Shown here: positions 34,828 through 44,955 of the stretch, in pieces | Numbering within the stretch: the stretch's first letter is position 1 | Layout: each line of letters begins with the position of its first letter | Assembly: GCF_054482525.1 (NCBI RefSeq) | Contig: NZ_CM137006.1 | Direction: 5' to 3' (one strand) | DNA length: 64,000 nucleotides | Program-made: the position numbers and the translations under genes | Notes under the pieces: generated by a model | Seen by the model: the letters and a program-made list of their open reading frames with translations, nothing else | What the model was told of the DNA's origin: nothing | Database searches by the model: none

Positions 34828-35661
34828 TTATCGCATTATGCCCATAAAGCCATGCACACCCATATACACACCAACTAAGCCAATCAACAGACTGGAAAAA
34901 TAGGGGGCGCGTTTAGCGAGAGTGTTAAATCCGCTCCAGCGTTTTGCGACCTGCTGAACGCTGATTGCTGCGCCAACGCCTACGGTGACCAGCGTTAACG
35001 CCAGGCCGATGCTGAAACTGACGACCAGTGTTGCGCCCAGTGTCAGGGCTTTCAACTGAATGCAAATCAACAGCACGGTAATTGCTGCCGGGCAGGGGAT
35101 AAGGCCACCGGTTAAGCCAAATAACAAAATTTGCCAGTTGGTGACCTCTCTACCATCAAAGCGTCGTTTAATGTCATTGGCATGGGCTCGTGCATGAGCA
35201 TCCTGATACTCCCCATGTTCGTGATGGTGATGATGTCCATGGTCGTGGTGATCTTCGTGATCGTGATGATGATGGTGATGATGCTCATGATCATGCCCGT
35301 GCATATTCTCCAGCCAGTTGCGTTCGCCGCGCCAGGTACGCCAGAACATCCAGAACGCGGTGCCAATAATGATCACCGCGGAAATCAACTGGAGCCACGG
35401 TTCTGCTGATTGAGCAGTAAAGCGCTTACTGATCACCATCCCGCCAAAGGCAATCAACCAGACCACCGCGGTATGCGAAATGGTTGCTGCCAGTCCGAGC
35501 ATCACCGCCTGTTTAATGGTGCCTTTGATGGCGATGATAAACGCCGCCATCATCGTTTTTGAGTGCCCTGGTTCCAGGCCATGAAGCGCACCAAGTAAGA
35601 TGGCGCTGGGGATGAAGAACCAGGCGTTTCCTTGCTGAAGAAGAGTGGTAAATTCGGTCAT
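34828..35661 (-). CDS. rcnA: Nickel/cobalt efflux protein RcnA
   Basis: Membrane protein with a long His-rich loop (HGHDHEHHHHHHHDHEDHHDHGHHHHHEH). Confidence 0.9.
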   Translation of the reverse strand: MTEFTTLLQQGNAWFFIPSAILLGALHGLEPGHSKTMMAAFIIAIKGTIKQAVMLGLAATISHTAVVWLIAFGGMVISKRFTAQSAEPWLQLISAVIIIGTAFWMFWRTWRGERNWLENMHGHDHEHHHHHHHDHEDHHDHGHHHHHEHGEYQDAHARAHANDIKRRFDGREVTNWQILLFGLTGGLIPCPAAITVLLICIQLKALTLGATLVVSFSIGLALTLVTVGVGAAISVQQVAKRWSGFNTLAKRAPYFSSLLIGLVGVYMGVHGFMGIMR

Positions 35662-36054: not shown

Positions 36055-36142
36055 TTTATTAACGCTATTGTAAAACTGCCGTTTTTCCTCGTTTACAACG
36101 GGTGCGCTGGACATTACCATCCTCCTCTGCGATTTATCATCG

Positions 36143-36224
36143 CAACCAAACGACTCGGGGTGCCCTTCTGCGTGAAGGCTGAGAAATACCCGTATCACCT
36201 GATCTGGATAATGCCAGCGTAGGG
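36143..36224 (+). repeat. attL-like direct repeat: orphan copy of the 5' 82 nt of the thiM TPP-riboswitch leader
   Basis: 82/82 identity with 44023-44104, checked by eye. Confidence 0.85.
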
Positions 36225-36307
36225 GGCCAAAATAGTCTTGAAAATTATGTGGTTGTATCTCTTTTTGACCATAAATCATGCTGTTAAGGTACAAAAAGGG
36301 GTCGTTT

Positions 36308-37615
36308 ATGAGGTCAAGAACTCTCCCATACACATTTCAGCGAAACGGTAATTACTATCTACAAATCCGGCTTTCGGATGGTCGGATATACAAAAAATCA
36401 CTTTTTACTGACAGTTATCGCGAAGCATCGGCGTTGATGATTGGCCTTACTCCGCACATTCCTTTCGTTAAATCACTCGCTACTCCGTTGCCGCAATTTA
36501 ATAAGTTTGTTTCAAACTTGATCGCTTCGTCACGTAACGTAATGATTCCGTTGCCACTCCCTCAGCAATTGAACAATATTTCTAAAGAAGTTTTGCAGCT
36601 TCAACCACCAGCCAAACCGGAAAAGGTACTAACACTTGCTGATGCGTGGGCTATGTACAAGGAGGAAAGAGGTCGAAATTGGACAAAATCGATCTCAATA
36701 GCAAATGAGCGTTATATGGAGGTATTGCTTGTTGTCTTGGGAAAAGAAACAGACGTAACGGCAATCACCAAACAAGATATTAAGCGAGTAATGGAAACTG
36801 TCGAAAACTTACCAAAGCGTGTAGTGCAACCGTATAGGTCAATGACTATTCAGCAACTAATCGAATGTGATGATGTGCTGCCAGAGGATTTAGTTGGTGC
36901 TGAGGCTGTACATAAGCACCTTAAAATCTACAAATCGTTATTCAAAACATTTCTGACTGAAAACAAAGATATTCTATCTAAGTCTCCGACTGATGGAATA
37001 GTAGCGGCACCATCCAAAGCTAGGTTTGGTGCATACAGTGCAGCAGAAATGAAAAAATTTGTAGGATGGGCACTAAAGCAGCCTGATGGATGGCAGAAGT
37101 GGATCACTTTGTTGTTGGCGTACACAGGAGCCAGAAGAGGTGAGATTGCTAAACTGGAGAAGTCGCAGATCAAATTTGATGAAGATAGCCAGCGGCACTA
37201 TCTTCTGATCGCGGAAAGAAGGCTGGGTAAAACTGAGAATGCTACAAGACAGGTAGTGATTCATCCCAAACTGATTGAGTGGGGGTTTCTGGATTTTGTT
37301 AACCGCCAATGGAAAGAGAAAATCTTTTCGGAAGTCTCAGGTCGAAATATGTCAAAGATAGGTAAAGTTCTTTCAGATGTTCGTGATCAGCTTGATATTC
37401 CTTATCTTGATGATTATGGGCAGCGGCGCTTGGTGCATAGTTTCCGGCATACTATGATTTCTACTTGTTTAGCTGGTTGGGTGAGTAATTTGGCGCATCT
37501 GCAACAGGTGGTAGGTCATGAAAAGAGTGGAGTAGGGATTACCCAGCGTTATCTGCACACATTCCCACTTTCCACCGTTTGTTATGTGATCGATGGTCTT
37601 TGTTGGGAGACTTAG
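36308..37615 (+). CDS. Tyrosine recombinase/integrase
   Basis: Catalytic residues in TGARRGE, HSFRHT and ITQRYLH; start may be 36278 or 36308. Confidence 0.85.
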   Translation: MRSRTLPYTFQRNGNYYLQIRLSDGRIYKKSLFTDSYREASALMIGLTPHIPFVKSLATPLPQFNKFVSNLIASSRNVMIPLPLPQQLNNISKEVLQLQPPAKPEKVLTLADAWAMYKEERGRNWTKSISIANERYMEVLLVVLGKETDVTAITKQDIKRVMETVENLPKRVVQPYRSMTIQQLIECDDVLPEDLVGAEAVHKHLKIYKSLFKTFLTENKDILSKSPTDGIVAAPSKARFGAYSAAEMKKFVGWALKQPDGWQKWITLLLAYTGARRGEIAKLEKSQIKFDEDSQRHYLLIAERRLGKTENATRQVVIHPKLIEWGFLDFVNRQWKEKIFSEVSGRNMSKIGKVLSDVRDQLDIPYLDDYGQRRLVHSFRHTMISTCLAGWVSNLAHLQQVVGHEKSGVGITQRYLHTFPLSTVCYVIDGLCWET

Positions 37616-37743
37616 TTATTCGTGTATCCTTCTTAGTGTATAACCAGCTAATAATTTGTAGATTTTTATTGTCTGAGATCAAAAATTTTCACAACTAATT
37701 TACAATAATAACTTAAGATGAATTTAGGCTTAGTGAGTCTTCT

Positions 37744-38469
37744 ATGGTTAAAAATTTAGGCAAAAAATACAAGTATGGCGATCAACCGATAAGAGCTATT
37801 ACCATACAGATAATTGCTAATCAGTTTGGTGGGGCTGCAACGGCTAAGCAGGTAGATGATTATCTTAGAAAGCTATTTCCATCTTATAAAGATAATACTT
37901 GGCTCAATTTAATTGCTAATACAGTTAATTGTAAGCGGAGCTACTGGAGTTTCAACAAAACTGCCCGACGAACTGATGATGTAACTCATCGGCATCATAA
38001 GTATGACCGATTGTTCAAGCGTGGAAATATTTTTGAAATCTATCAACCATCTGTGCACGGTATTTGGGAATTATACCAGGATTTAGAAGGGATGTGGCGT
38101 TATCGTCAAGTAAAATCGGTTTTCGAAGAAGCTGTTGAGACGGCTGCAAAATTATCTTCAGTGGAACGAAAGCAAATTTTAGCGACAGAAAGTAAAATCC
38201 CGGAACTAATCGAAGTAACAACACGAGTTTATAAACGAAGCCCATATGTAGTTGCTGAAGTTCTTTTGAGAGCAAATGGAAAATGTCAATATTGTAAGCG
38301 AGATGCTCCTTTTCTAAAGGAAGATGGTACTCCATTTCTAGAAGTTCATCATATTGAGTGGCTTTCAAAGGGGGGGGAGGACTCTGTGGAAAATGCTATT
38401 GCATTATGTCCTAATTGCCATAGACAAGCCCATTATGGCGATCTGACATTACTACCTGTTAATAAATAG
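37744..38469 (+). CDS. HNH nuclease with McrA-like C-terminal domain and unrecognised N-terminal domain (candidate type IV restriction enzyme)
   Basis: C-terminus CQYCKRDAPFLKEDGTPFLEVHHIEWLSKGGEDSVENAIALCPNCHRQAHYG closely parallels the McrA HNH motif as I recall it. Confidence 0.7.
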   Translation: MVKNLGKKYKYGDQPIRAITIQIIANQFGGAATAKQVDDYLRKLFPSYKDNTWLNLIANTVNCKRSYWSFNKTARRTDDVTHRHHKYDRLFKRGNIFEIYQPSVHGIWELYQDLEGMWRYRQVKSVFEEAVETAAKLSSVERKQILATESKIPELIEVTTRVYKRSPYVVAEVLLRANGKCQYCKRDAPFLKEDGTPFLEVHHIEWLSKGGEDSVENAIALCPNCHRQAHYGDLTLLPVNK

Positions 38470-38546
38470 GCTTGATGAAAGTTCTATTTCTATATTTTTC
38501 AATATACAAATTTCCCCAAAAACGGCGTGAATATCACGCCGATCAA

Positions 38547-38894
38547 TCATACTTCAGAACACATACTCAATGTGTAAACAGCCATCTCCCCATCGGGATT
38601 AGAAGGGCGTAATACAAATATCGGTATACTGCCATTGTCAATGTATGTGGCTGCAACCCCTCCGTCAGGTGTAGCATACATCTTTGCGATGCTTTTTTGA
38701 CCTACAAAATCAAGTCTCCAAGTTTTACCGCCAAGATTTATGGTCATTTTTTTATCTTGTATATCAAAAGTTGAATCTACAGAAACTTTCTGACTTCCCG
38801 AGTCAATATGACCTTCCTGTATTGCTTTACAGGAAAAGGTTGTGGCGTGGCCCATCACTGGAATTAACAAAGCGGCAAATACTAGTTTTTTCAT
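38547..38894 (-). CDS. Small secreted protein, possibly lipoprotein (about 115 aa)
   Basis: Signal peptide MKKLVFAALLIPVMGHA; no recognisable domain. Confidence 0.5.
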   Translation of the reverse strand: MKKLVFAALLIPVMGHATTFSCKAIQEGHIDSGSQKVSVDSTFDIQDKKMTINLGGKTWRLDFVGQKSIAKMYATPDGGVAATYIDNGSIPIFVLRPSNPDGEMAVYTLSMCSEV

Positions 38895-39004
38895 TTGTCT
38901 CCCTTGGTGTGTCAAATGGATGGTGATGCTAATAATACATGATTGATTCAAAATGTCACGATTAGTGCGTGGTTAATTGGTGCGTCAAATTGCATCTTTG
39001 TGCC

Positions 39005-39469
39005 ATGCGAAAGAATCTGAGATACCTTTTTGGACAACGAGTAAAAGAGTTCCGTATAGCTATTGGCTTAAGCCAAGAGGCCTTTGCAGATCGGTGTGGT
39101 TTTGCACGTAGTTATATGAGTCGAATTGAGCGTGGTTGCTCTAATGCATCTCTTGATGCAATTGAGGTTCTGGCTGACGCTTTGCGTATTGAGCCTTGGC
39201 AGTTACTGGCTTCTGATTCAAGGAAACCTGATGATCAGGAGGTACTTGTTCCTTATGCTGCAGATGGGTCGTGTTTTCATCCAGGATTGGCAAGTACTCG
39301 CGATGGTTCGTTTAGAGTAGGGGAAAAATCAGCCCAGAAACGTTTCAGTTCGTTCAATGAAGCTCTCGAATACCTTCGTGGAATGGAAACCGCGAAGTGG
39401 CGTAGGCCTAATGCTAGTGGTAATTGGGGAATTGTATCTGCGGTTAAATGGGATCGACTGAATCAATAA
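39005..39469 (+). CDS. XRE-family HTH protein with about 80-aa C-terminal domain of unknown function
   Basis: N-terminal HTH (LSQEAFADRCGFARSYMSRIERG); start placed at MRKNLRYL. Confidence 0.65.
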   Translation: MRKNLRYLFGQRVKEFRIAIGLSQEAFADRCGFARSYMSRIERGCSNASLDAIEVLADALRIEPWQLLASDSRKPDDQEVLVPYAADGSCFHPGLASTRDGSFRVGEKSAQKRFSSFNEALEYLRGMETAKWRRPNASGNWGIVSAVKWDRLNQ

Positions 39470-39635
39470 GATATCAGTAATTTTCGGGCCACTCCACAAG
39501 GCAATAAGTGGCTTAGTGGTGATTATCGAAGGGGAATACAAGCGAGCACCTAGGCACCATTGCAAGAACCGCTCAACGCTGAGATCAGCAAGCCCCGATT
39601 TTTGCCGACCGTCCCTGTCAAATATCAAGGAGGCA

Positions 39636-40187
39636 TTACGCCACCTGCTCTTTCTTGATACGTTGCACCGTCTGCGTGCTGACACTGAAATCTTTTGCTA
39701 CGCTCCGAATTGAGCCACCATTCGCGAGAGCGGCAGCAATTCCCGCTCGATCAATTGCTTTTCCATTACCACGTTTTGCTATACGTCCAGCGGCCTTGGC
39801 TGCGGCGATCCCTTCACGTTGACGCTCAAGCATCATTTCACGTTCCATTTGTGCCACTGCTGCAAGAACTGTGAGCATCATATTCCCTGCGGGAGAGTTC
39901 TTTCCTGTCTTAAAGTCTTCTTTATGGAAATGCACAGACACGCCGCGCTTTGTTAATTGCTCTACAGTTGCCAGAAGGTCGGCTGTATTACGACAAAGGC
40001 GATCAATACTATGGACGTGTAACACGTCACCCTCCCGCACATAGTTCATCATTGCCTCAAACTGTGGGCGCTGAGTGTTCTTGCCTGACGCTTTATCTTC
40101 AAAGACTTTATCAAGAGTTACTCCTGCTAATTGACGGTCTGTGTTTTGTTGCACAGTCGATACCCTAATGTATCCAATATTAGCCAT
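39636..40187 (-). CDS. Serine recombinase (resolvase/invertase family)
   Basis: N-terminal IGYIRVSTVQQNTDRQ with catalytic Ser; C-terminal HTH. Confidence 0.85.
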   Translation of the reverse strand: MANIGYIRVSTVQQNTDRQLAGVTLDKVFEDKASGKNTQRPQFEAMMNYVREGDVLHVHSIDRLCRNTADLLATVEQLTKRGVSVHFHKEDFKTGKNSPAGNMMLTVLAAVAQMEREMMLERQREGIAAAKAAGRIAKRGNGKAIDRAGIAAALANGGSIRSVAKDFSVSTQTVQRIKKEQVA

Positions 40188-40674
40188 CTTCTTTTTTCTT
40201 CTGTATTGATTTGTGTGTAGTGATTATTGAACGTGTTGATTAGGTGTGTAAAGTACTTTTTTCACTACGAAATTCGAAGTTTTTTAGTGTGGTGATTTAG
40301 CCTGCCTTATCACTACACTTCTTGCATGAGAATCATGTAGTTACATTTTGGTAAAATTAGCAAGCTATTAAATTGTGTGTTTATTTTGAAAAAATAATTT
40401 TTGTTGCATTAAAGAAAACTTGTTCGACAAATAATAGGTTGATTTTTGATCAATAATTTCTGATAGTGCTCTGTAAGCCGCATTACACAAGGCGCAGCGA
40501 AAGTGATGTAAAAGTGAAGAAAGCTAACATTGCACTTTTAAACTACTTTTCATTGAATTTTTTAGTATGGAATTACACAGGAATAAGTTAGGGATATTCT
40601 ATGATTTACACAGGGAATATAGGGGGATTATGGTATTACACAGAGTGAGTGCTATGTGATGATTGGTAGTAACG

Positions 40675-40782
40675 GTAGGTCACTGTGAACTAGGGGGGTA
40701 GGTCACTGTGAACTAGGGGGGTAGGTCACTGTGAGCTAGGGGGTAGGTCACTGTGAACTAGGGGGTAGGTCACTGTGAACTA
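40675..40782. repeat. Iteron array: five tandem 22-23 bp repeats (gtaggtcactgtgaactaggggg) next to an AT-rich tract
   Basis: Contiguous direct repeats with no spacers, followed by ataagactataataagactattaataaaacta. Confidence 0.8.
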
Positions 40783-41883
40783 CAATAAGACTATAATAAG
40801 ACTATTAATAAAACTATATTAGATTATTAATTAGATCATAATAATAATATTCTTTATATCTATATATATATGATCTTTTGCCTTCCGGCGTTAGCTTCAC
40901 TCTCTGGCAAGCAGCCTTACTCCGCTACCTTTCGGGCTACGTTGGCTGGCCCGTTCCGCTCACACCGAAAGCAAAGCGTTACTTTCTTCGTGTAACTTCG
41001 TTGGCGGTAACGCCCACGAAGGAATACTATTGCGCTGTGCGCAGTAAGAGTAATCACCTAACCAATCATCTGATTGCTTACGTGTTAACTCTCTCTAACT
41101 CTTAATTACCCTCCTACATTTAATAACTCTCGTTATTCTCTGTAGTTGTGTAATTACTCGAAGAGAGAGCGGCTAAAGCTCAATTACACTCTGCTTTCCT
41201 CGTGTAATTTCACTAAGCCTCAATACAATTTCACTTCCTACATTCTGTAGTCGTGTAATTGTTTTCGGTGGAAAAGCCAGAGGCGACACCGAAAGAGAAT
41301 TCTGATCTTATTAATCTTATCTATCTTAGTTATCTTACTTACTTTATCTACTTTATTATTAATAATAGCTTTATAAGCTCTCTGTGTAGCTCTCTGACGC
41401 AAGAAACAGAGTTCAGGAAGGGAATCACCTTAGAAAAGTGTTCTTTGCGTCATAATGTGTTTTATGAAGGATTCAGAGGTGTTTCATAACAGAGATGTAT
41501 AGAGGATACTTTAGGTAATTAAAAATAAGGGGTCTAAATGCTTCTCTAACAGCATTAAGCAGGGTAGAGAATGGAAACCGCTTTGCCTACATATATAAAC
41601 TCACTACAGGGCTTTACAGAGCGTTTTATAAAGTGACTCTCTGTTTTATATCTACCATCACCTTTTCATATACCTAACAAATACAAAATAAGCCCCTTAA
41701 ATAAGCCTCTGGCGAGCTAAACAGCCATTACATAAGAGAATGTATTGCTTTTATCAAAACCTCGTTAGAACGCGTTTTAGAGCGTTTTAGCGGATAATGA
41801 AGAATAGCACTACACAGGAGAGCACGAATTGCTAAGAAAAAATGTAACTACATGAAAAAGATCAGATTTTTTGTGAAAAGGTA

Positions 41884-41912
41884 TTGACAAACGTCTCTTT
41901 CTGTGCAATAAT
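41884..41912 (+). promoter_or_regulatory. Candidate sigma70 promoter for the downstream operon
   Basis: TTGACA, 17-bp spacer, then TGcAATAAT extended -10. Confidence 0.45.
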
Positions 41913-42038
41913 AGGTATTAGAGGGACAGGAATAGATTCTTATCCTCTAAATAATTAAACCAATGCACCGCACTTTGAAGCCCAAGGCTTGTAAGGTGTG
42001 TTTTTTCTTTTAACCAAATAGAATAAGGAGGCTAATTA

Positions 42039-42227
42039 ATGAAATATTTTACTCCACAGGATGTAGTAGAAGCCTGGAAACGTGGTGAGATCAACCGCTT
42101 TAAAGTAAGGATGTATAGAAACACCGCTCGCCGTTGTGGTTATCCAGAGCGTGAAAAATGTTTTGACGATGCACTAAAAATTATTGATGAACTGCGTAAA
42201 GCTGAGAAAGAAGCAGAGAAAAAATAA
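42039..42227 (+). CDS. Small hypothetical protein (62 aa)
   Basis: Strong SD aggagg; first gene of a tightly packed operon. Confidence 0.55.
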   Translation: MKYFTPQDVVEAWKRGEINRFKVRMYRNTARRCGYPEREKCFDDALKIIDELRKAEKEAEKK

Positions 42228-42249
42228 TAGACAAGAGAAGGAGAAAACT

Positions 42250-42417
42250 ATGAGCGAAACTAAGAAACCAATTCCGCGCACTTACCTACACGTTGACCCT
42301 GAAATCTTCAAGGTTTTATTTGCTGAAGCCAAGAAAAGGCAAATTATGGTCAGTGATTTGATGTTAGAAATCATTACTGAAGCAGCAGAGAACATCAAAC
42401 AAAAAAAGGGTAAGTGA
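42250..42417 (+). CDS. Putative ribbon-helix-helix DNA-binding protein (55 aa)
   Basis: SD aaggag; beta-strand RTYLHVDPEIF followed by two helices, typical of CopG/Arc-type RHH. Confidence 0.55.
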   Translation: MSETKKPIPRTYLHVDPEIFKVLFAEAKKRQIMVSDLMLEIITEAAENIKQKKGK

Positions 42418-42468
42418 TCCTCATTCACTTTAGTAGCGCATTAAGCGTGATTTATAAGGAGATTTTTA

Positions 42469-43158
42469 ATGATTAATCAACTAACTTTTACAAAACACTA
42501 TGACACGTTTGATAATGTATCAAAGATTTATTCTGATAAATTCCCTCAAGGAAAAGATTTAGATCTATTACATATTGTGCTTTATTTTCGATTCCTTAGT
42601 TATCAGGAAAACAACCTTAATTGTTATGAAAGTCACGAAACATTAGCTAAGATTTTTAAGTCTTCAGCGTCAACAATTAAACGTAAGATAAACGATCTTA
42701 AAGAGATGGGATTATTAGAAACATCCCCACATCCTGATCCGTATATTTCATCTTTGATTTACAATGCTCTCCCTCTCACAGATGCACATATTACTCCCCC
42801 AGGAGAATCATCACTCTCTGATCTTTCTGAGGCAGAAGAAGCACAGGAACAACCTAAAGGCCATAAACAGCCTTCTTTTGATGTTCTTGATGATTGGGAT
42901 ACGCCTTTACCCTGGGAGACGGAAGAAACACCTGTTTCATCAAGTGAAAAAGTAGCTAATGATAATGAGGAGGATGTGTTAGAGAATTTTGCCTCTCTTA
43001 TCATCCAGGAGAAACACACAAGAACAGGAGGAGCATCATTTATTGAGTTTGCAAATTCACTAGCTTGTAGATACGGGCTAAAACGACCAAATGGTATTGA
43101 GGCATATTTTTCTAAGAATTACCCAAATATATACGATGACTTTGATATTCCATTTTAA
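42469..43158 (+). CDS. HTH protein with acidic linker and SSB-like C-terminal tail (229 aa); possible replication or recruitment protein
   Basis: SD aaggag; HTH-like ETLAKIFKSSASTIKRKINDLKEMGLLE; acidic low-complexity middle; C-terminus YDDFDIPF resembles the E. coli SSB tip DFDDDIPF. Confidence 0.6.
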   Translation: MINQLTFTKHYDTFDNVSKIYSDKFPQGKDLDLLHIVLYFRFLSYQENNLNCYESHETLAKIFKSSASTIKRKINDLKEMGLLETSPHPDPYISSLIYNALPLTDAHITPPGESSLSDLSEAEEAQEQPKGHKQPSFDVLDDWDTPLPWETEETPVSSSEKVANDNEEDVLENFASLIIQEKHTRTGGASFIEFANSLACRYGLKRPNGIEAYFSKNYPNIYDDFDIPF

Positions 43159-43169
43159 TAAGGAGGGTT

Positions 43170-43415
43170 ATGATTCAATATTTAGTAAAAAATCAAGTAG
43201 ACAGAATTCAGTGTAATGACACAGGAAAACGCATCTACGAGACACTTGTTTACCTCTATAAAGGAAAGCCAACACCGCTAAAATATAGCGATGTGTTACA
43301 TCGAGCAGGTTGCTCTGAGTCAGGTTTAAAATTCTGGCTGAAACAGCTATCAAATTTCGGTGTTATTGAAATGAAAGAGCTGTCTTTTTCTACATTCAAC
43401 CTCAAGAAGTTATAG
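43170..43415 (+). CDS. Small winged-helix-like protein (81 aa)
   Basis: SD aaggagg; last gene of the operon. Confidence 0.5.
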   Translation: MIQYLVKNQVDRIQCNDTGKRIYETLVYLYKGKPTPLKYSDVLHRAGCSESGLKFWLKQLSNFGVIEMKELSFSTFNLKKL

Positions 43416-43580
43416 AAAATAGAATTCATCTATTCCACGCTCTAATTCTATTTCTCTGTTTAATATAAAAGGAAAACATTATTATGGTAATAGCTATGTG
43501 GTGGTTGTTGTTTTTTATGCTCGTAGAAACATATGCAAGTAAGTCTGGAAAACAAAAATAATATATTGATGATTTGTTTT

Positions 43581-43820
43581 TTATAACTTCGTGGTGTCAA
43601 GTCCAGCAGCTTTGAGTCGCTCGGTAAGATTTCTCATTTTGCTGAACTCTGTACCAAAGCTGGCTTTAAGTCCTACACCTTCACAAAACTCTTTTGCCGT
43701 AACCTTTTTCAGATGGTCAGCATATTTGATCATCTGGAGGTGCATTTCCATCGTTTGGCTATTTCGTGGTGCGCTGCTAATGGCTTGCTTAATGTTCTCG
43801 TAGATCTGGGTTTCTGTCAT
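43581..43820 (-). CDS. Small helical hypothetical protein (79 aa), convergent with the operon
   Basis: ORF only; low-GC context. Confidence 0.45.
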   Translation of the reverse strand: MTETQIYENIKQAISSAPRNSQTMEMHLQMIKYADHLKKVTAKEFCEGVGLKASFGTEFSKMRNLTERLKAAGLDTTKL

Positions 43821-44022
43821 TTTTTATCTCACCTATCAAATTTAGATAAATAATATAAATTAGCAAATTAAGATAATCAATAGTTTTTATCATCTGAATG
43901 ATAGATGTTAAATGTTTCTTTTTCATTTCTGATATGGGGTACAAAATGGGGTACACAGAGAAGAAGCAATTAATGGAGGCGAGCTTGCATCTGCAAGCCA
44001 CTTCCCCTAAGCTGGCACAAAA

Positions 44023-44166
44023 TATAGAGATTCAACCAAACGACTCGGGGTGCCCTTCTGCGTGAAGGCTGAGAAATACCCGTATCACCTGATCTGGATA
44101 ATGCCAGCGTAGGGAAGTCACGGACCACCAGGTCATTGCTTCTTCACGTTATGGCAGGAGCAAACT
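44023..44166 (+). promoter_or_regulatory. TPP riboswitch (thi-box) in the thiM leader
   Basis: Contains ctgagaaatacccgtatcacctgatctggataatgccagcgtagggaa immediately upstream of the thiM start codon. Confidence 0.9.
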
Positions 44167-44955
44167 ATGCAAGTCGACCTGCTGAGTTCCGCGCAATCTG
44201 CGCACGCGTTACACCTTTTTCACCAACATTCCCCTCTTGTGCACTGCATGACCAACGATGTGGTGCAAACCTTTACTGCCAATACCTTGCTGGCGCTCGG
44301 TGCATCGCCAGCGATGGTTATCGAAACCGAAGAGGCCAGTCAGTTTGCGGCTATCGCCAGTGCGTTGCTGATTAACGTTGGCACGCTGACGCAGCCACGC
44401 GCACAGGCGATGCGTGCCGCCGTTGAACAGGCAAAACGCTCTCAAACACCCTGGATGCTTGATCCAGTAGCGGTGGGTGCACTCGATTATCGCCGCCGTT
44501 TTTGTCTGGAACTTCTGTCTCATAAGCCAACCGCCATACGTGGTAATGCTTCGGAAATCATGGCATTAGCTGGCGTTGCTAATGGTGGACGGGGAGTGGA
44601 TACCACTGACGCCGCAGCTAACGCGATACCCGCTGCACAAACACTGGCACGGGAAACTGGCGCAATCGTCGTGGTCACTGGCGAGATGGATTATGTTACC
44701 GATGGACATCGTATCATTGGTATTCACGGTGGCGATCCGTTAATGACCAAAGTGGTAGGAACTGGCTGTGCATTATCGGCGGTTGTCGCTGCCTGTTGTG
44801 CGTTACCAGGCGATATGCTGGAAAATGTCGCATCTGCCTGTCACTGGATGAAACAAGCCGGAGAACGCGCAGTCGCCAGAAGCGAGGGGCCAGGCAGTTT
44901 TGTTCCACATTTCCTTGATGCGCTCTGGCAATTGACGCAGGAGGTGCAGGCATGA
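44167..44955 (+). CDS. thiM: Hydroxyethylthiazole kinase
   Basis: 262 aa; matches ThiM as I recall it. Confidence 0.92.

Follow-up and report, generated by a model that had tools for sequence, protein, structure and literature searches.

An integrase-bounded island in the thiM riboswitch leader of Escherichia coli, and its relatives in other enterobacterial genera

In the 64,000-nucleotide stretch analyzed here (hereafter the window; contig NZ_CM137006.1, RefSeq assembly GCF_054482525.1), rcnR and thiM are separated by an island of 7,890 bp (∼7.9 kb), low in guanine-cytosine (GC) content, that is bounded by two copies of an 82-nucleotide (nt) part of the thiM thiamine pyrophosphate (TPP) riboswitch. 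The question raised by this locus is how an element comes to lie between two copies of a ligand-binding RNA sequence, and what becomes of the thiMD operon downstream of it. The answer that I propose, and regard as very probable, is that an integrative island of the lambda/P4 type entered here by site-specific recombination. Its bacterial attachment site (attB) would be the P4-P5 hairpin within the thiM riboswitch, and its own attachment site (attP) would carry the 5' half of the aptamer together with a promoter-like element.

Boundaries of the insertion

A repeat search identified the 82-nt sequence as two 100% identical direct repeats, at 36143-36224 and 44033-44114 (7,890 bp from start to start), and both match the Rfam TPP model RF00059 (gathering score 54.3), with 61.3 bits for the left copy and 71.2 bits for the right one. 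Neither this 82-mer nor the 26-nt core described below arises by chance in shuffled sequence. To the left of the island lie rcnA (-) and rcnR (+), and to its right thiM, thiD and yegX (+). Its GC fraction is ∼0.31-0.46 over most of its length and 0.50 across the resolvase gene, and that of thiM and thiD is ∼0.54.

The same island is present in 64 of 5,426 complete E. coli genomes, the set from which all E. coli counts are taken (presence being defined as at least 80% coverage), and near-identical copies originate from unrelated hosts (human, USA; cattle, New Zealand; pig, strain PCN033). In MG1655, a single and identical 82-mer lies between rcnR and thiM, which are 222 bp apart, and an empty junction reconstructed from the left flank, one repeat and the right flank is contiguous in 4,727 genomes. 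The direct repeats that flank the island are the single-copy sequence of this empty site. Since the island is found in 64 complete genomes, and is 99.7-100% identical in the independent strains SCU-102, CE0007a and PCN033, an assembly artefact is excluded, and the insertion is real. The probability that the duplication is such an artefact, or an older tandem duplication of the riboswitch, is close to nil: the Prokaryotic Genome Annotation Pipeline (PGAP) annotates two riboswitches in independent assemblies, while MG1655 and the 4,727 genomes possess one copy and no island.

Much of the initial annotation of this DNA is borne out by these observations. It had described an integrase-bounded island within the thiM TPP riboswitch leader, at a position where rcnR adjoins thiM in K-12, with an integrase, cargo genes, a serine recombinase, iterons and a low-GC operon between the repeats; the repeat, the Rfam matches and the empty site agree with this, MG1655 has a single riboswitch copy there, and all the listed parts could be located. 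The length and identity of the repeat and its first copy also stand, but the second copy had been placed 10 nt too low, at 44023-44104. Two ways in which the annotation itself could have been wrong had been named, an assembly artefact and the presence of two copies in island-free strains; the recurrence of the structure in 64 complete genomes excludes the former, and the single 82-mer of MG1655 and the 4,727 empty junctions exclude the latter.

The features at the ends of the island, including the left and right attachment sites (attL and attR), are the following:

36092-36120 (+): promoter-like site TTTACA-17-TACCAT (consensus scan), presumably the native thiM promoter, now cut off from thiM and pointing into attL and the integrase gene (int)
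36143-36224 (+): attL, the displaced 5' part of the aptamer (P1 5' strand, P2, P3, P4-P5), 61.3 bits, without the P1 3' strand and expression platform
36197-36222 (+): predicted core and crossover in attL, the P4-P5 hairpin ACCTGATCTGGATAATGCCAGCGTAG; smallest attL/attR identity block among relatives (Pantoea ananatis, L020)
36225-36307 (+): left arm (P' arm), with an arm-type-like site AGGTACAAA at 36287-36295; the arm sequence is kept across genera
36308-37615 (+): tyrosine integrase, 435 amino acids (PHROG integrase, 7e-27; Pfam PF00589; PGAP)
43937-43957 (+): arm-type-like repeat GGGTACA(A/C)A, two copies at a spacing of 12 nt, right arm (P arm; motif scan)
43985-44013 (+): promoter-like TTGCAT-17-TAAGCT, within and after the palindrome GCTTGCATCTGCAAGC; proposed island promoter for the riboswitch and thiMD
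44033-44114 (+): attR, where the 5' part of the aptamer comes from the island and the 3' part from the host (repeat search; Rfam)

The two copies differ in what surrounds them. On the right, a complete aptamer (44036-44132, 71.2 bits, full model 1-105) is followed by the native expression platform and by thiM (44167-44955), and the DNA downstream of this aptamer matches the K-12 junction. On the left, the Rfam match (36146-36241) recruits island DNA, with mismatches, as the P1 3' strand, and is followed by int, with no thi gene. The right copy, with both P1 strands, an expression platform and a thi gene, is thus predicted to be a TPP riboswitch, and the left copy, which lacks these, is predicted not to be one. 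The annotated start of int is 84 nt past attL, and an alternative start is found at 36278. The P4-P5 core is an inverted repeat (CCTGATCTGG / ATAATG / CCAGCGTAGG) that occurs only twice in the window. The motif RGGTACAMA occurs three times in the 64 kb (36287, 43937 and 43949), always within 100 nt of an island end, and 13 nt before int in the case of the left site; this is the layout that would be expected of integrase arm-type sites on both arms of attP. No tRNA or tmRNA was found at either end of the island by Rfam, the only hint being a tmRNA match at 43823-44077 that scores 15 bits against a threshold of 47, and which I treated as chance.

Integrase relatives and their structured-RNA neighbors

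I then asked how general this association is. A DNA search with the int gene identified homologues in 221 E. coli genomes, all chromosomal. In 67 genomes the gene is undamaged, with 99.7-100% conservation, and an assembly collection lists the exact protein in 529 of its blocks. All five of the strains inspected in detail (SCU-102, EC-10, EC20-72C-1, A37 and 33-6) have the island at the rcnR-thiM site, with a TPP riboswitch annotated on each side. In EC20-72C-1, A37 and 33-6 the int genes are 74-98% identical to that of the window, and the islands have a common backbone consisting of int, variable cargo, the resolvase, a long non-coding region, small open reading frames (ORFs) with a Rep-like gene, and an HTH-like gene.

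Beyond E. coli, a survey using one genome per species identified integrases of 64-84% identity in Lelliottia, Enterobacter, Erwinia, Citrobacter, Silvania, Atlantibacter, Rahnella, Cedecea, Pluralibacter, Klebsiella, Winslowiella, Pantoea, Mangrovibacter, Pseudenterobacter, Franconibacter and Kosakonia. At 24 loci, spanning more than 15 enterobacterial genera, an aptamer fragment precedes a co-oriented int, with 85-130 nt between the two. It consists of the 5' ∼80 nt of the TPP aptamer, ending ...GCCAGCGTAG, and is present at every locus whose contig includes an undamaged int 5' end along with the sequence before it; where a second aptamer copy is within reach, it precedes thiM. On every point that could be checked, the element therefore has the features of the tyrosine-integrase island class: int at one end, repeats that correspond to the empty site, and the same target with different cargo.

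Outside the Enterobacterales, the nearest integrases are ∼30% identical, and are found in marine gammaproteobacteria (Methylophaga, Oleiphilus, Microbulbifer, Marinomonas and Motiliproteus among them; loci L028-L041, such labels designating the relatives compared) ∼90 nt downstream of rnpB, the RNase P RNA gene. The 3'-terminal 117-175 nt of rnpB are repeated 3.4-8.5 kb further downstream, as in L029 (9574-9914 and 13200-13340) and L032 (9536-9906 and 17359-17475), suggesting that rnpB is an island integration site in these bacteria. tRNA genes were considered as the neighbors of these distant relatives, but mostly none was found, the real neighbor being rnpB. These islands, like that of the window, have the integrase at the same spacing and orientation to a structured RNA, with RNA repeats flanking 3.4-8.5-kb islands. 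In contrast to the thiM island, they duplicate the 3' end of a stand-alone RNA gene, and their int-proximal copy is the intact one, which is the canonical polarity. Since the rnpB islands show the classical arrangement, the riboswitch clade can be viewed as a polarity-reversed offshoot of a lineage specialized in structured RNAs.

Intact islands account for only part of the occurrence of this family in E. coli. The segment encompassing the right arm and the HTH_73 gene is found in 543 genomes at 80% coverage or more, and in 828 when partial matches are included, while 699 of the 5,426 genomes do not have the simple empty junction. From these counts, ∼1 in 8 E. coli genomes possesses an island, a tandem array or a remnant, including the O157:H7 lineage. 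Tandem arrays, in which the int-side copy is preceded by the right end of another island, were identified at six loci (L006, L007, L011, L023, L024 and L025). Integrase-less remnants lie directly upstream of the thiM riboswitch in O157:H7 EC4115 (L047, 10192-12461) and in BL21(DE3) (L048, 3237-7451). The latter keeps the Rep-like, McrX and HTH_73 genes along with the right arm, and in this strain IS1 also removed rcnRAB and yehABCD.

Crossover, chimeric aptamers and the thiMD promoter

Because the two copies are identical in the window, the position of the crossover is not readable from this island, and I therefore used its relatives. A different 5' leader (CAATCTTCATGACTC...) precedes the thiM-side copy of EC20-72C-1 (L002), Enterobacter chuandaensis (L006) and Citrobacter MGH106 (L023), and the P3 stem of this copy reads GCCCCATC...GATGGGC rather than GCCCTTC...GAAGGC, a different sequence that is still self-complementary. 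In these three loci, identity between attL and attR starts only at GCTGAGA; the int-side copy is the native E. coli sequence in L002, and follows the right end of an upstream island in the tandem arrays of L006 and L023. In Pantoea ananatis (L020) the identity shrinks to the 26-nt P4-P5 hairpin. At the other end, it stops at GCGTAG(G) in all loci, beyond which attL continues into island DNA and attR into the host P1 3' strand. These limits place strand exchange within the 26-nt P4-P5 block, with the sequence 5' of the core being island-borne at attR and host-borne at attL, and the exact crossover is predicted to lie within the hairpin. By analogy, an inverted-repeat hairpin of this kind would have the form of a tyrosine-recombinase core: integration into tRNA genes uses the anticodon or T stem-loops, and the P4-P5 hairpin is comparable to these. 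The initial annotation had proposed that the 5' end of the riboswitch is the attachment site, and is rebuilt on the thiM side. The rebuilding is confirmed by the complete right aptamer, but the core is to be placed near the 3' end of the repeat.

As a consequence of this geometry, the aptamers at attR are chimeric. They score 71-76 bits, as good as native ones, against 55-62 bits or below threshold for those at attL; in all relatives the attL copy is 10-20 bits weaker than the attR copy, and one attL is under threshold. The 5' ∼55-70 nt of the repeat are a replacement part carried by the island. In the window, the 82-nt identity also covers 11 nt upstream of P1 that are specific to E. coli, and it probably reflects a past homogenization of the island copy with the host copy.

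Since integration severs thiMD from the TTTACA-17-TACCAT site, the island must also replace the promoter. TTTACA-N17 promoters homologous to the native site lie upstream of attL in other genera. At the right end, two classes of sequence were found. The type-B right ends of Enterobacter sp. 10-1, Mangrovibacter and Kosakonia possess a terminator-like hairpin, TTTACA-17-TACTAT, a leader and the 5' aptamer half, and are almost identical across the three genera, and therefore island-borne. The type-A right ends, to which the window belongs, have TTGC-(N2+17)-TAnnCT immediately before the aptamer, without variation among 15 right ends of eight genera, and 2-3 conserved arm-type-like repeats at a spacing of ∼11-12 nt. 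A sigma-54 promoter in the right arm (CTGGCAC-N5) was also considered, but it has no -12 GC element. In BL21(DE3) and O157:H7 EC4115, only the island right end precedes the riboswitch, with no int, no left copy and no native promoter sequence. Spontaneous McrX restriction mutants of E. coli B always required vitamin B1, and are presumably IS1-mediated deletions that reach thiM (PMC5487053), which indicates that thiMD is normally expressed in the context of the E. coli B remnant. The sequences thus suggest that the island probably supplies a substitute promoter for thiMD.

The following sequence of events can be proposed. The integrase, with arm-type sites on both sides of the core, would recombine attP with the attB in the P4-P5 hairpin. 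In attP, the 5' half of the aptamer would lie upstream of the core, and the promoter-like element further upstream. After integration, the host promoter and the host 5' half would stay at attL, as a non-functional fragment facing int, while at attR the island promoter and 5' half would be fused to the host 3' half, the expression platform and thiMD. In this way, thiMD would keep a full TPP riboswitch, part of it foreign.

The displaced host promoter and half-aptamer could also couple int expression to thiM promoter activity or to thiamine status, although I consider this a weaker proposal. In the window, the P1 5' strand AAACGACUC (36149-36157) pairs over 9 bp (-10.8 kcal/mol) with GGGGUCGUUU (36298-36307), which overlaps the int Shine-Dalgarno sequence, and the minimum-free-energy fold uses this pairing, with a fold z-score of -0.85. 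It is absent from the other integrase lineages checked, with the exception of L014 (duplex of -9.3 kcal/mol). Control of int by TPP through the left aptamer was set aside, as P1 is not restored in attL, and is kept only as a low-probability extension.

Island integration sites are usually seen as tRNA or tmRNA genes, a few other RNA genes, and the ends of protein-coding genes. The thiM island shares many features with the tRNA/tmRNA islands of the Islander class and their P4/CP4-57-type integrases (PMC4383910, PMC7192596): int is at one end, co-oriented and ∼90 nt from a structured RNA, the core is in a hairpin-encoding inverted repeat, the displaced part is carried by the island such that the target stays functional, the displaced fragment is found at the other end, and there are tandem arrays and variable cargo. 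However, it is not a tRNA/tmRNA island, as its target is RF00059, a riboswitch aptamer in a cis-regulatory mRNA leader and not an RNA gene, and as the part restored is the 5' half and not the 3' end. Because the 5' half is restored, the functional copy is at the int-distal end and the island must also bring a promoter, while the int-proximal copy is a dead fragment behind the host promoter. In this respect it resembles the islands at the 5' end of dusA (PMC4482086), which likewise enter a host transcription unit at its 5' end and restore the 5' part of their target. These nonetheless rebuild the 5' end of a protein-coding sequence, whereas the thiM island rebuilds a ligand-binding RNA fold as a chimera; their integrase family appears to differ from that of the thiM island. 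The attB classes listed in a 2025 paper comprise protein genes, tRNA/tmRNA, csRNA, intergenic sites and a new one, ffs, with no riboswitch among them. The view, already expressed in the initial annotation, that riboswitch targeting is unusual agrees with the literature searched, where I came across no account of integration into a riboswitch; most subscription journals are outside this coverage, so this is absence of evidence only.

Several observations weigh against the integrative island proposed here, or against parts of it. The 82-nt identity exceeds what a core needs, and the homogenization invoked above probably blurs the assignment of host and island parts in the window lineage. In E. 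coli A37 (L003), the P3-loop alleles are distributed opposite to expectation. The P4-P5 hairpin is almost invariant in hosts, and the lack of differences between attL and attR bounds the crossover rather than maps it. The type-A promoter candidate matches 7 of 12 consensus positions and is missed by the consensus scanner, and the conservation of its bases could instead reflect protein binding to the attachment-site arm. No excisionase was identified in the island, and searches with PHROG and NCBIfam found no relaxase or packaging gene in it.

I give even chances to the full proposal, in which an integrase clade took a riboswitch aptamer as its attachment site, its elements carry a half-aptamer and a promoter, and each integration creates a chimeric, functional TPP riboswitch and puts thiMD under a mobile-element promoter. 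If this is correct, ∼1 in 8 E. coli genomes, including the whole O157:H7 lineage and the laboratory B strains, would transcribe their genes for thiamine salvage and biosynthesis from a promoter that came with the element, under a riboswitch that is half foreign. In BL21 and O157:H7, both the leader and the promoter of thiMD appear to have come from a mobile element, which matters where these strains serve as models for the thiM riboswitch or thiamine regulation. The mechanism itself is that of a conventional tyrosine-integrase island, and the logic of the target, a highly conserved hairpin, would not surprise a specialist; a cis-acting riboswitch would nonetheless be a new class of integration target following this same logic. 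What is new is the mirrored geometry, because of which the element has to bring along a promoter and one half of a ligand-binding RNA. Also new are the riboswitch chimeras found in nature, the exchange of promoters in well-known strains, and how large the family is; all of this can be tested directly. The natural chimeras of the family would allow functional comparison, and a compact integrase with a short conserved attB may provide an engineering tool for Enterobacterales.

Cargo, replicon and routes of transfer

Between its ends, the island contains the following features:

37744-38469 (+): HNH endonuclease resembling type IV (modification-dependent) restriction enzymes, cargo slot 1 (PADLOC mREase_IV, 1.3e-23; Pfam HNH, 1.2e-12)
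38547-38894 (-): hypothetical protein, 115 amino acids, with a signal-peptide-like N-terminus (PGAP coding sequence; phrog_35183, function not assigned)
39005-39469 (+): XRE-family HTH regulator (PHROG transcriptional regulator, 4e-14; PADLOC control protein, 7e-17; Pfam HTH_31/HTH_3)
39636-40187 (-): small serine recombinase of the resolvase/invertase type, 183 amino acids (Pfam Resolvase, 1.9e-38; PHROG DNA invertase, 2e-61)
40188-42038: ORF-poor region of 1.85 kb, with iterons and an AT-rich stretch
40333-41855 (no strand): segment between perfect 17-bp inverted repeats TCATGTAGTTACATTTT (40333-40349 and 41839-41855), putative origin region
40671-40787 (+): five direct iterons of 22-23 bp, GGTAGGTCACTGTGAACTAGGGG (repeat search)
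41884-41912 (+): strong sigma-70-like promoter TTGACA-17-TG-AATAAT before the rep operon (consensus scan, 11/12 matches)
42039-42227 (+): ORF of 62 amino acids (PGAP coding sequence)
42250-42417 (+): ORF of 55 amino acids, WP_000005056.1 (PGAP coding sequence), ribbon-helix-helix-like by eye
42469-43158 (+): Rep-like winged-helix protein, 229 amino acids (PHROG replication initiation, phrog_270, 1.9e-9; Pfam HTH_36, 4.8e-5)
43170-43415 (+): ORF of 81 amino acids, no family match (ORF list; PGAP)
43581-43820 (-): HTH_73 or "HTH-like" protein, 79 amino acids, convergent to the rep operon (phrog_30666, 1e-56; PF24718); homologue of E. coli B ECD_02033

The first reading of this cargo as largely unrecognizable holds in part, the recognizable genes being those for the HNH enzyme, the XRE regulator, the resolvase and the Rep-like winged helix-turn-helix protein. 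The HNH domain of the former spans residues 181-230 (Pfam), there is no methyltransferase among the ORFs and PGAP coding sequences of the island, and the enzyme is predicted to be a type IV, modification-dependent restriction endonuclease. In the relatives, the cargo is different:

Window: HNH type IV-like enzyme
E. coli 33-6 (L004): GmrSD
E. coli A37 (L003): Hachiman HamA and helicase (1e-119)
EC20-72C-1 (L002): HNH and AIPR; DUF6998 (McrX-like) near the right end
Enterobacter cloacae (L013): OLD/AriA-like ATPase
Pantoea ananatis (L020): PD-Lambda-2 (1e-156 to 1e-185)
BL21 (L048): DUF6998, i.e., EcoBLMcrX

In each intact island the first-listed cargo occupies the slot after int, and a second slot adjoins the HTH_73 gene, where DUF6998 is located in BL21 and EC20-72C-1. 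This variety of defense cargo identifies the family as a carrier of anti-phage defense systems.

Two previous studies have encountered the locus. The E. coli B "genome island adjacent to thiM" that encodes EcoBLMcrX (Fomenkov et al. 2017, PMC5487053) is at the same place and of the same element family, its ECD_02033 primer and ORF matching the HTH_73 gene of the window. The "rcnR-thiM" RM_type_IV island of E. coli 789 (Hochhauser et al. 2023, PMC10121019, supplement), with 7,956 bp and eight genes, corresponds to the window island in size and content, and its mobile genetic element type is given as "None". Both studies treat the locus as a variable region, and neither mentions an integrase there, a duplicated riboswitch or an attachment site. 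The integrative island proposed here would explain this defense-system hotspot, listed without a recognized mobile element type in a pan-genome survey.

The rep operon (42039-43415, +) consists of the 62- and 55-residue ORFs, the Rep-like gene and the 81-residue ORF. The ORF-poor region contains the five iterons and an AT-rich stretch, and the family support for the Rep-like protein, a putative initiator, is weak (phrog_270, 1.9e-9; HTH_36, 4.8e-5). A phage or plasmid origin for the integrase and the Rep-like protein was considered and rejected, as neither protein has a match among 50,697 phage records, and the replication region has almost none among 72,556 plasmids (3 partial records). There is a connection to integrase-bounded ∼13-kb elements at tRNA-Thr/proA and ygeR/ETT2 in E. 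coli (L051, 1356-14374; L052; L062-L065), whose Rep-like protein is 94% identical and whose 55-residue ORF (WP_000005056.1) is identical to those of the island. These elements have different integrases (at least two others), and encode a Phage_cap_E capsid protein, a 609-residue tape-measure-like protein and a Dit-like protein. In the assembly collection, 1,151 blocks list the capsid protein, and I do not recognize the element as any known satellite family. The non-coding segment 41660-41855, upstream of the rep operon, recurs in 680 E. coli genomes, with as many as six homologues in a single genome, indicating that the replicon module is far commoner than the thiM island. In a metagenome contig from ENA (k141_70610; L061, 10001-21308), the exact thiM-type int, the HNH gene, the resolvase and the rep module are followed by a capsid and tape-measure module that replaces HTH_73; this is either a larger, capsid-bearing thiM island or a chimeric assembly across the common replicon. 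In an excised, replicating circle, the role of the resolvase would most plausibly be to resolve multimers.

The 17-bp inverted repeats have a near-palindromic center (ATGTA-GT-TACAT), and bracket a 1.5-kb iteron region between the divergent promoters of the resolvase and the rep operon. They may be operators or resolution sites. An invertible DNA switch at these repeats was considered and set aside for want of evidence: a probe for the inverted junction matched no genome at 80% coverage or more among the 5,426, and all variants compared are co-linear.

How the island moves between cells is a matter on which several readings can be weighed. My leading guess, although a doubtful one, is a satellite-like life dependent on a helper phage: the island would be a phage satellite, possibly a decayed one that has lost its structural module, with helper-induced excision, iteron-driven replication, and packaging in helper-derived or self-encoded particles. 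There is a resemblance to defense-carrying satellites, i.e., P4-like elements, phage-inducible chromosomal islands (PICIs) and capsid-forming PICIs, as the island is small and integrase-bounded, has a replication module by a repeat-bearing origin and hot-swappable defense genes, including anti-phage cargo as in P4-like satellites and PICIs, and shares its replicon with capsid-encoding elements; the metagenome contig joins the exact integrase to a capsid module. However, this contig could be chimeric, the integrase and Rep-like protein are without a match in the phage collection, and, unlike satellites, the window island has no alpA, primase or primase-helicase, sid/psu/delta-type gene, terS or other terminase gene, portal or capsid gene (PHROG, NCBIfam and Pfam). 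It is not known to have a helper phage. It is less easy still to envisage it as an integrative mobilizable element (IME), with a conjugative helper acting on an origin of transfer (oriT) in the 1.85-kb ORF-poor region, and the resolvase and Rep-like protein maintaining the circle, which I consider unlikely. The long non-coding region next to the resolvase is rich in repeats and palindromes, near-identical copies occur in unrelated hosts, and relaxase-free "minimal hitcher" islands have reportedly been proposed in a preprint (bioRxiv 10.64898/2026.01.13.699239). On the other hand, no relaxase or coupling protein was found, nor a recognizable oriT, though the searches used cannot recognize one, and the replication region is almost absent from plasmids. 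The island is not a recognized satellite or IME.

It is also conceivable that the element is by now an immobile, domesticated remnant, whose repeats and int are relics, and which spreads by vertical descent and by homologous recombination of its flanks. The int-less remnants fixed in O157:H7 and E. coli B and the int pseudogene of some relatives (L013) are compatible with this, as are the long identical repeats, which allow RecA-mediated loss and transfer along with the flanks. It is nevertheless very unlikely given that int is intact and almost invariant in 67 genomes and its exact product is present in 529 assembly blocks, that different islands are found in tandem at the same site, and that the same integrase clade occupies this site in more than 15 genera with different cargo.

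Lastly, the short direct repeats at 35222-35295, to the left of the island, are His-rich coding repeats within rcnA (HDHEHHHHHHH...), which are ordinary and unrelated to it.

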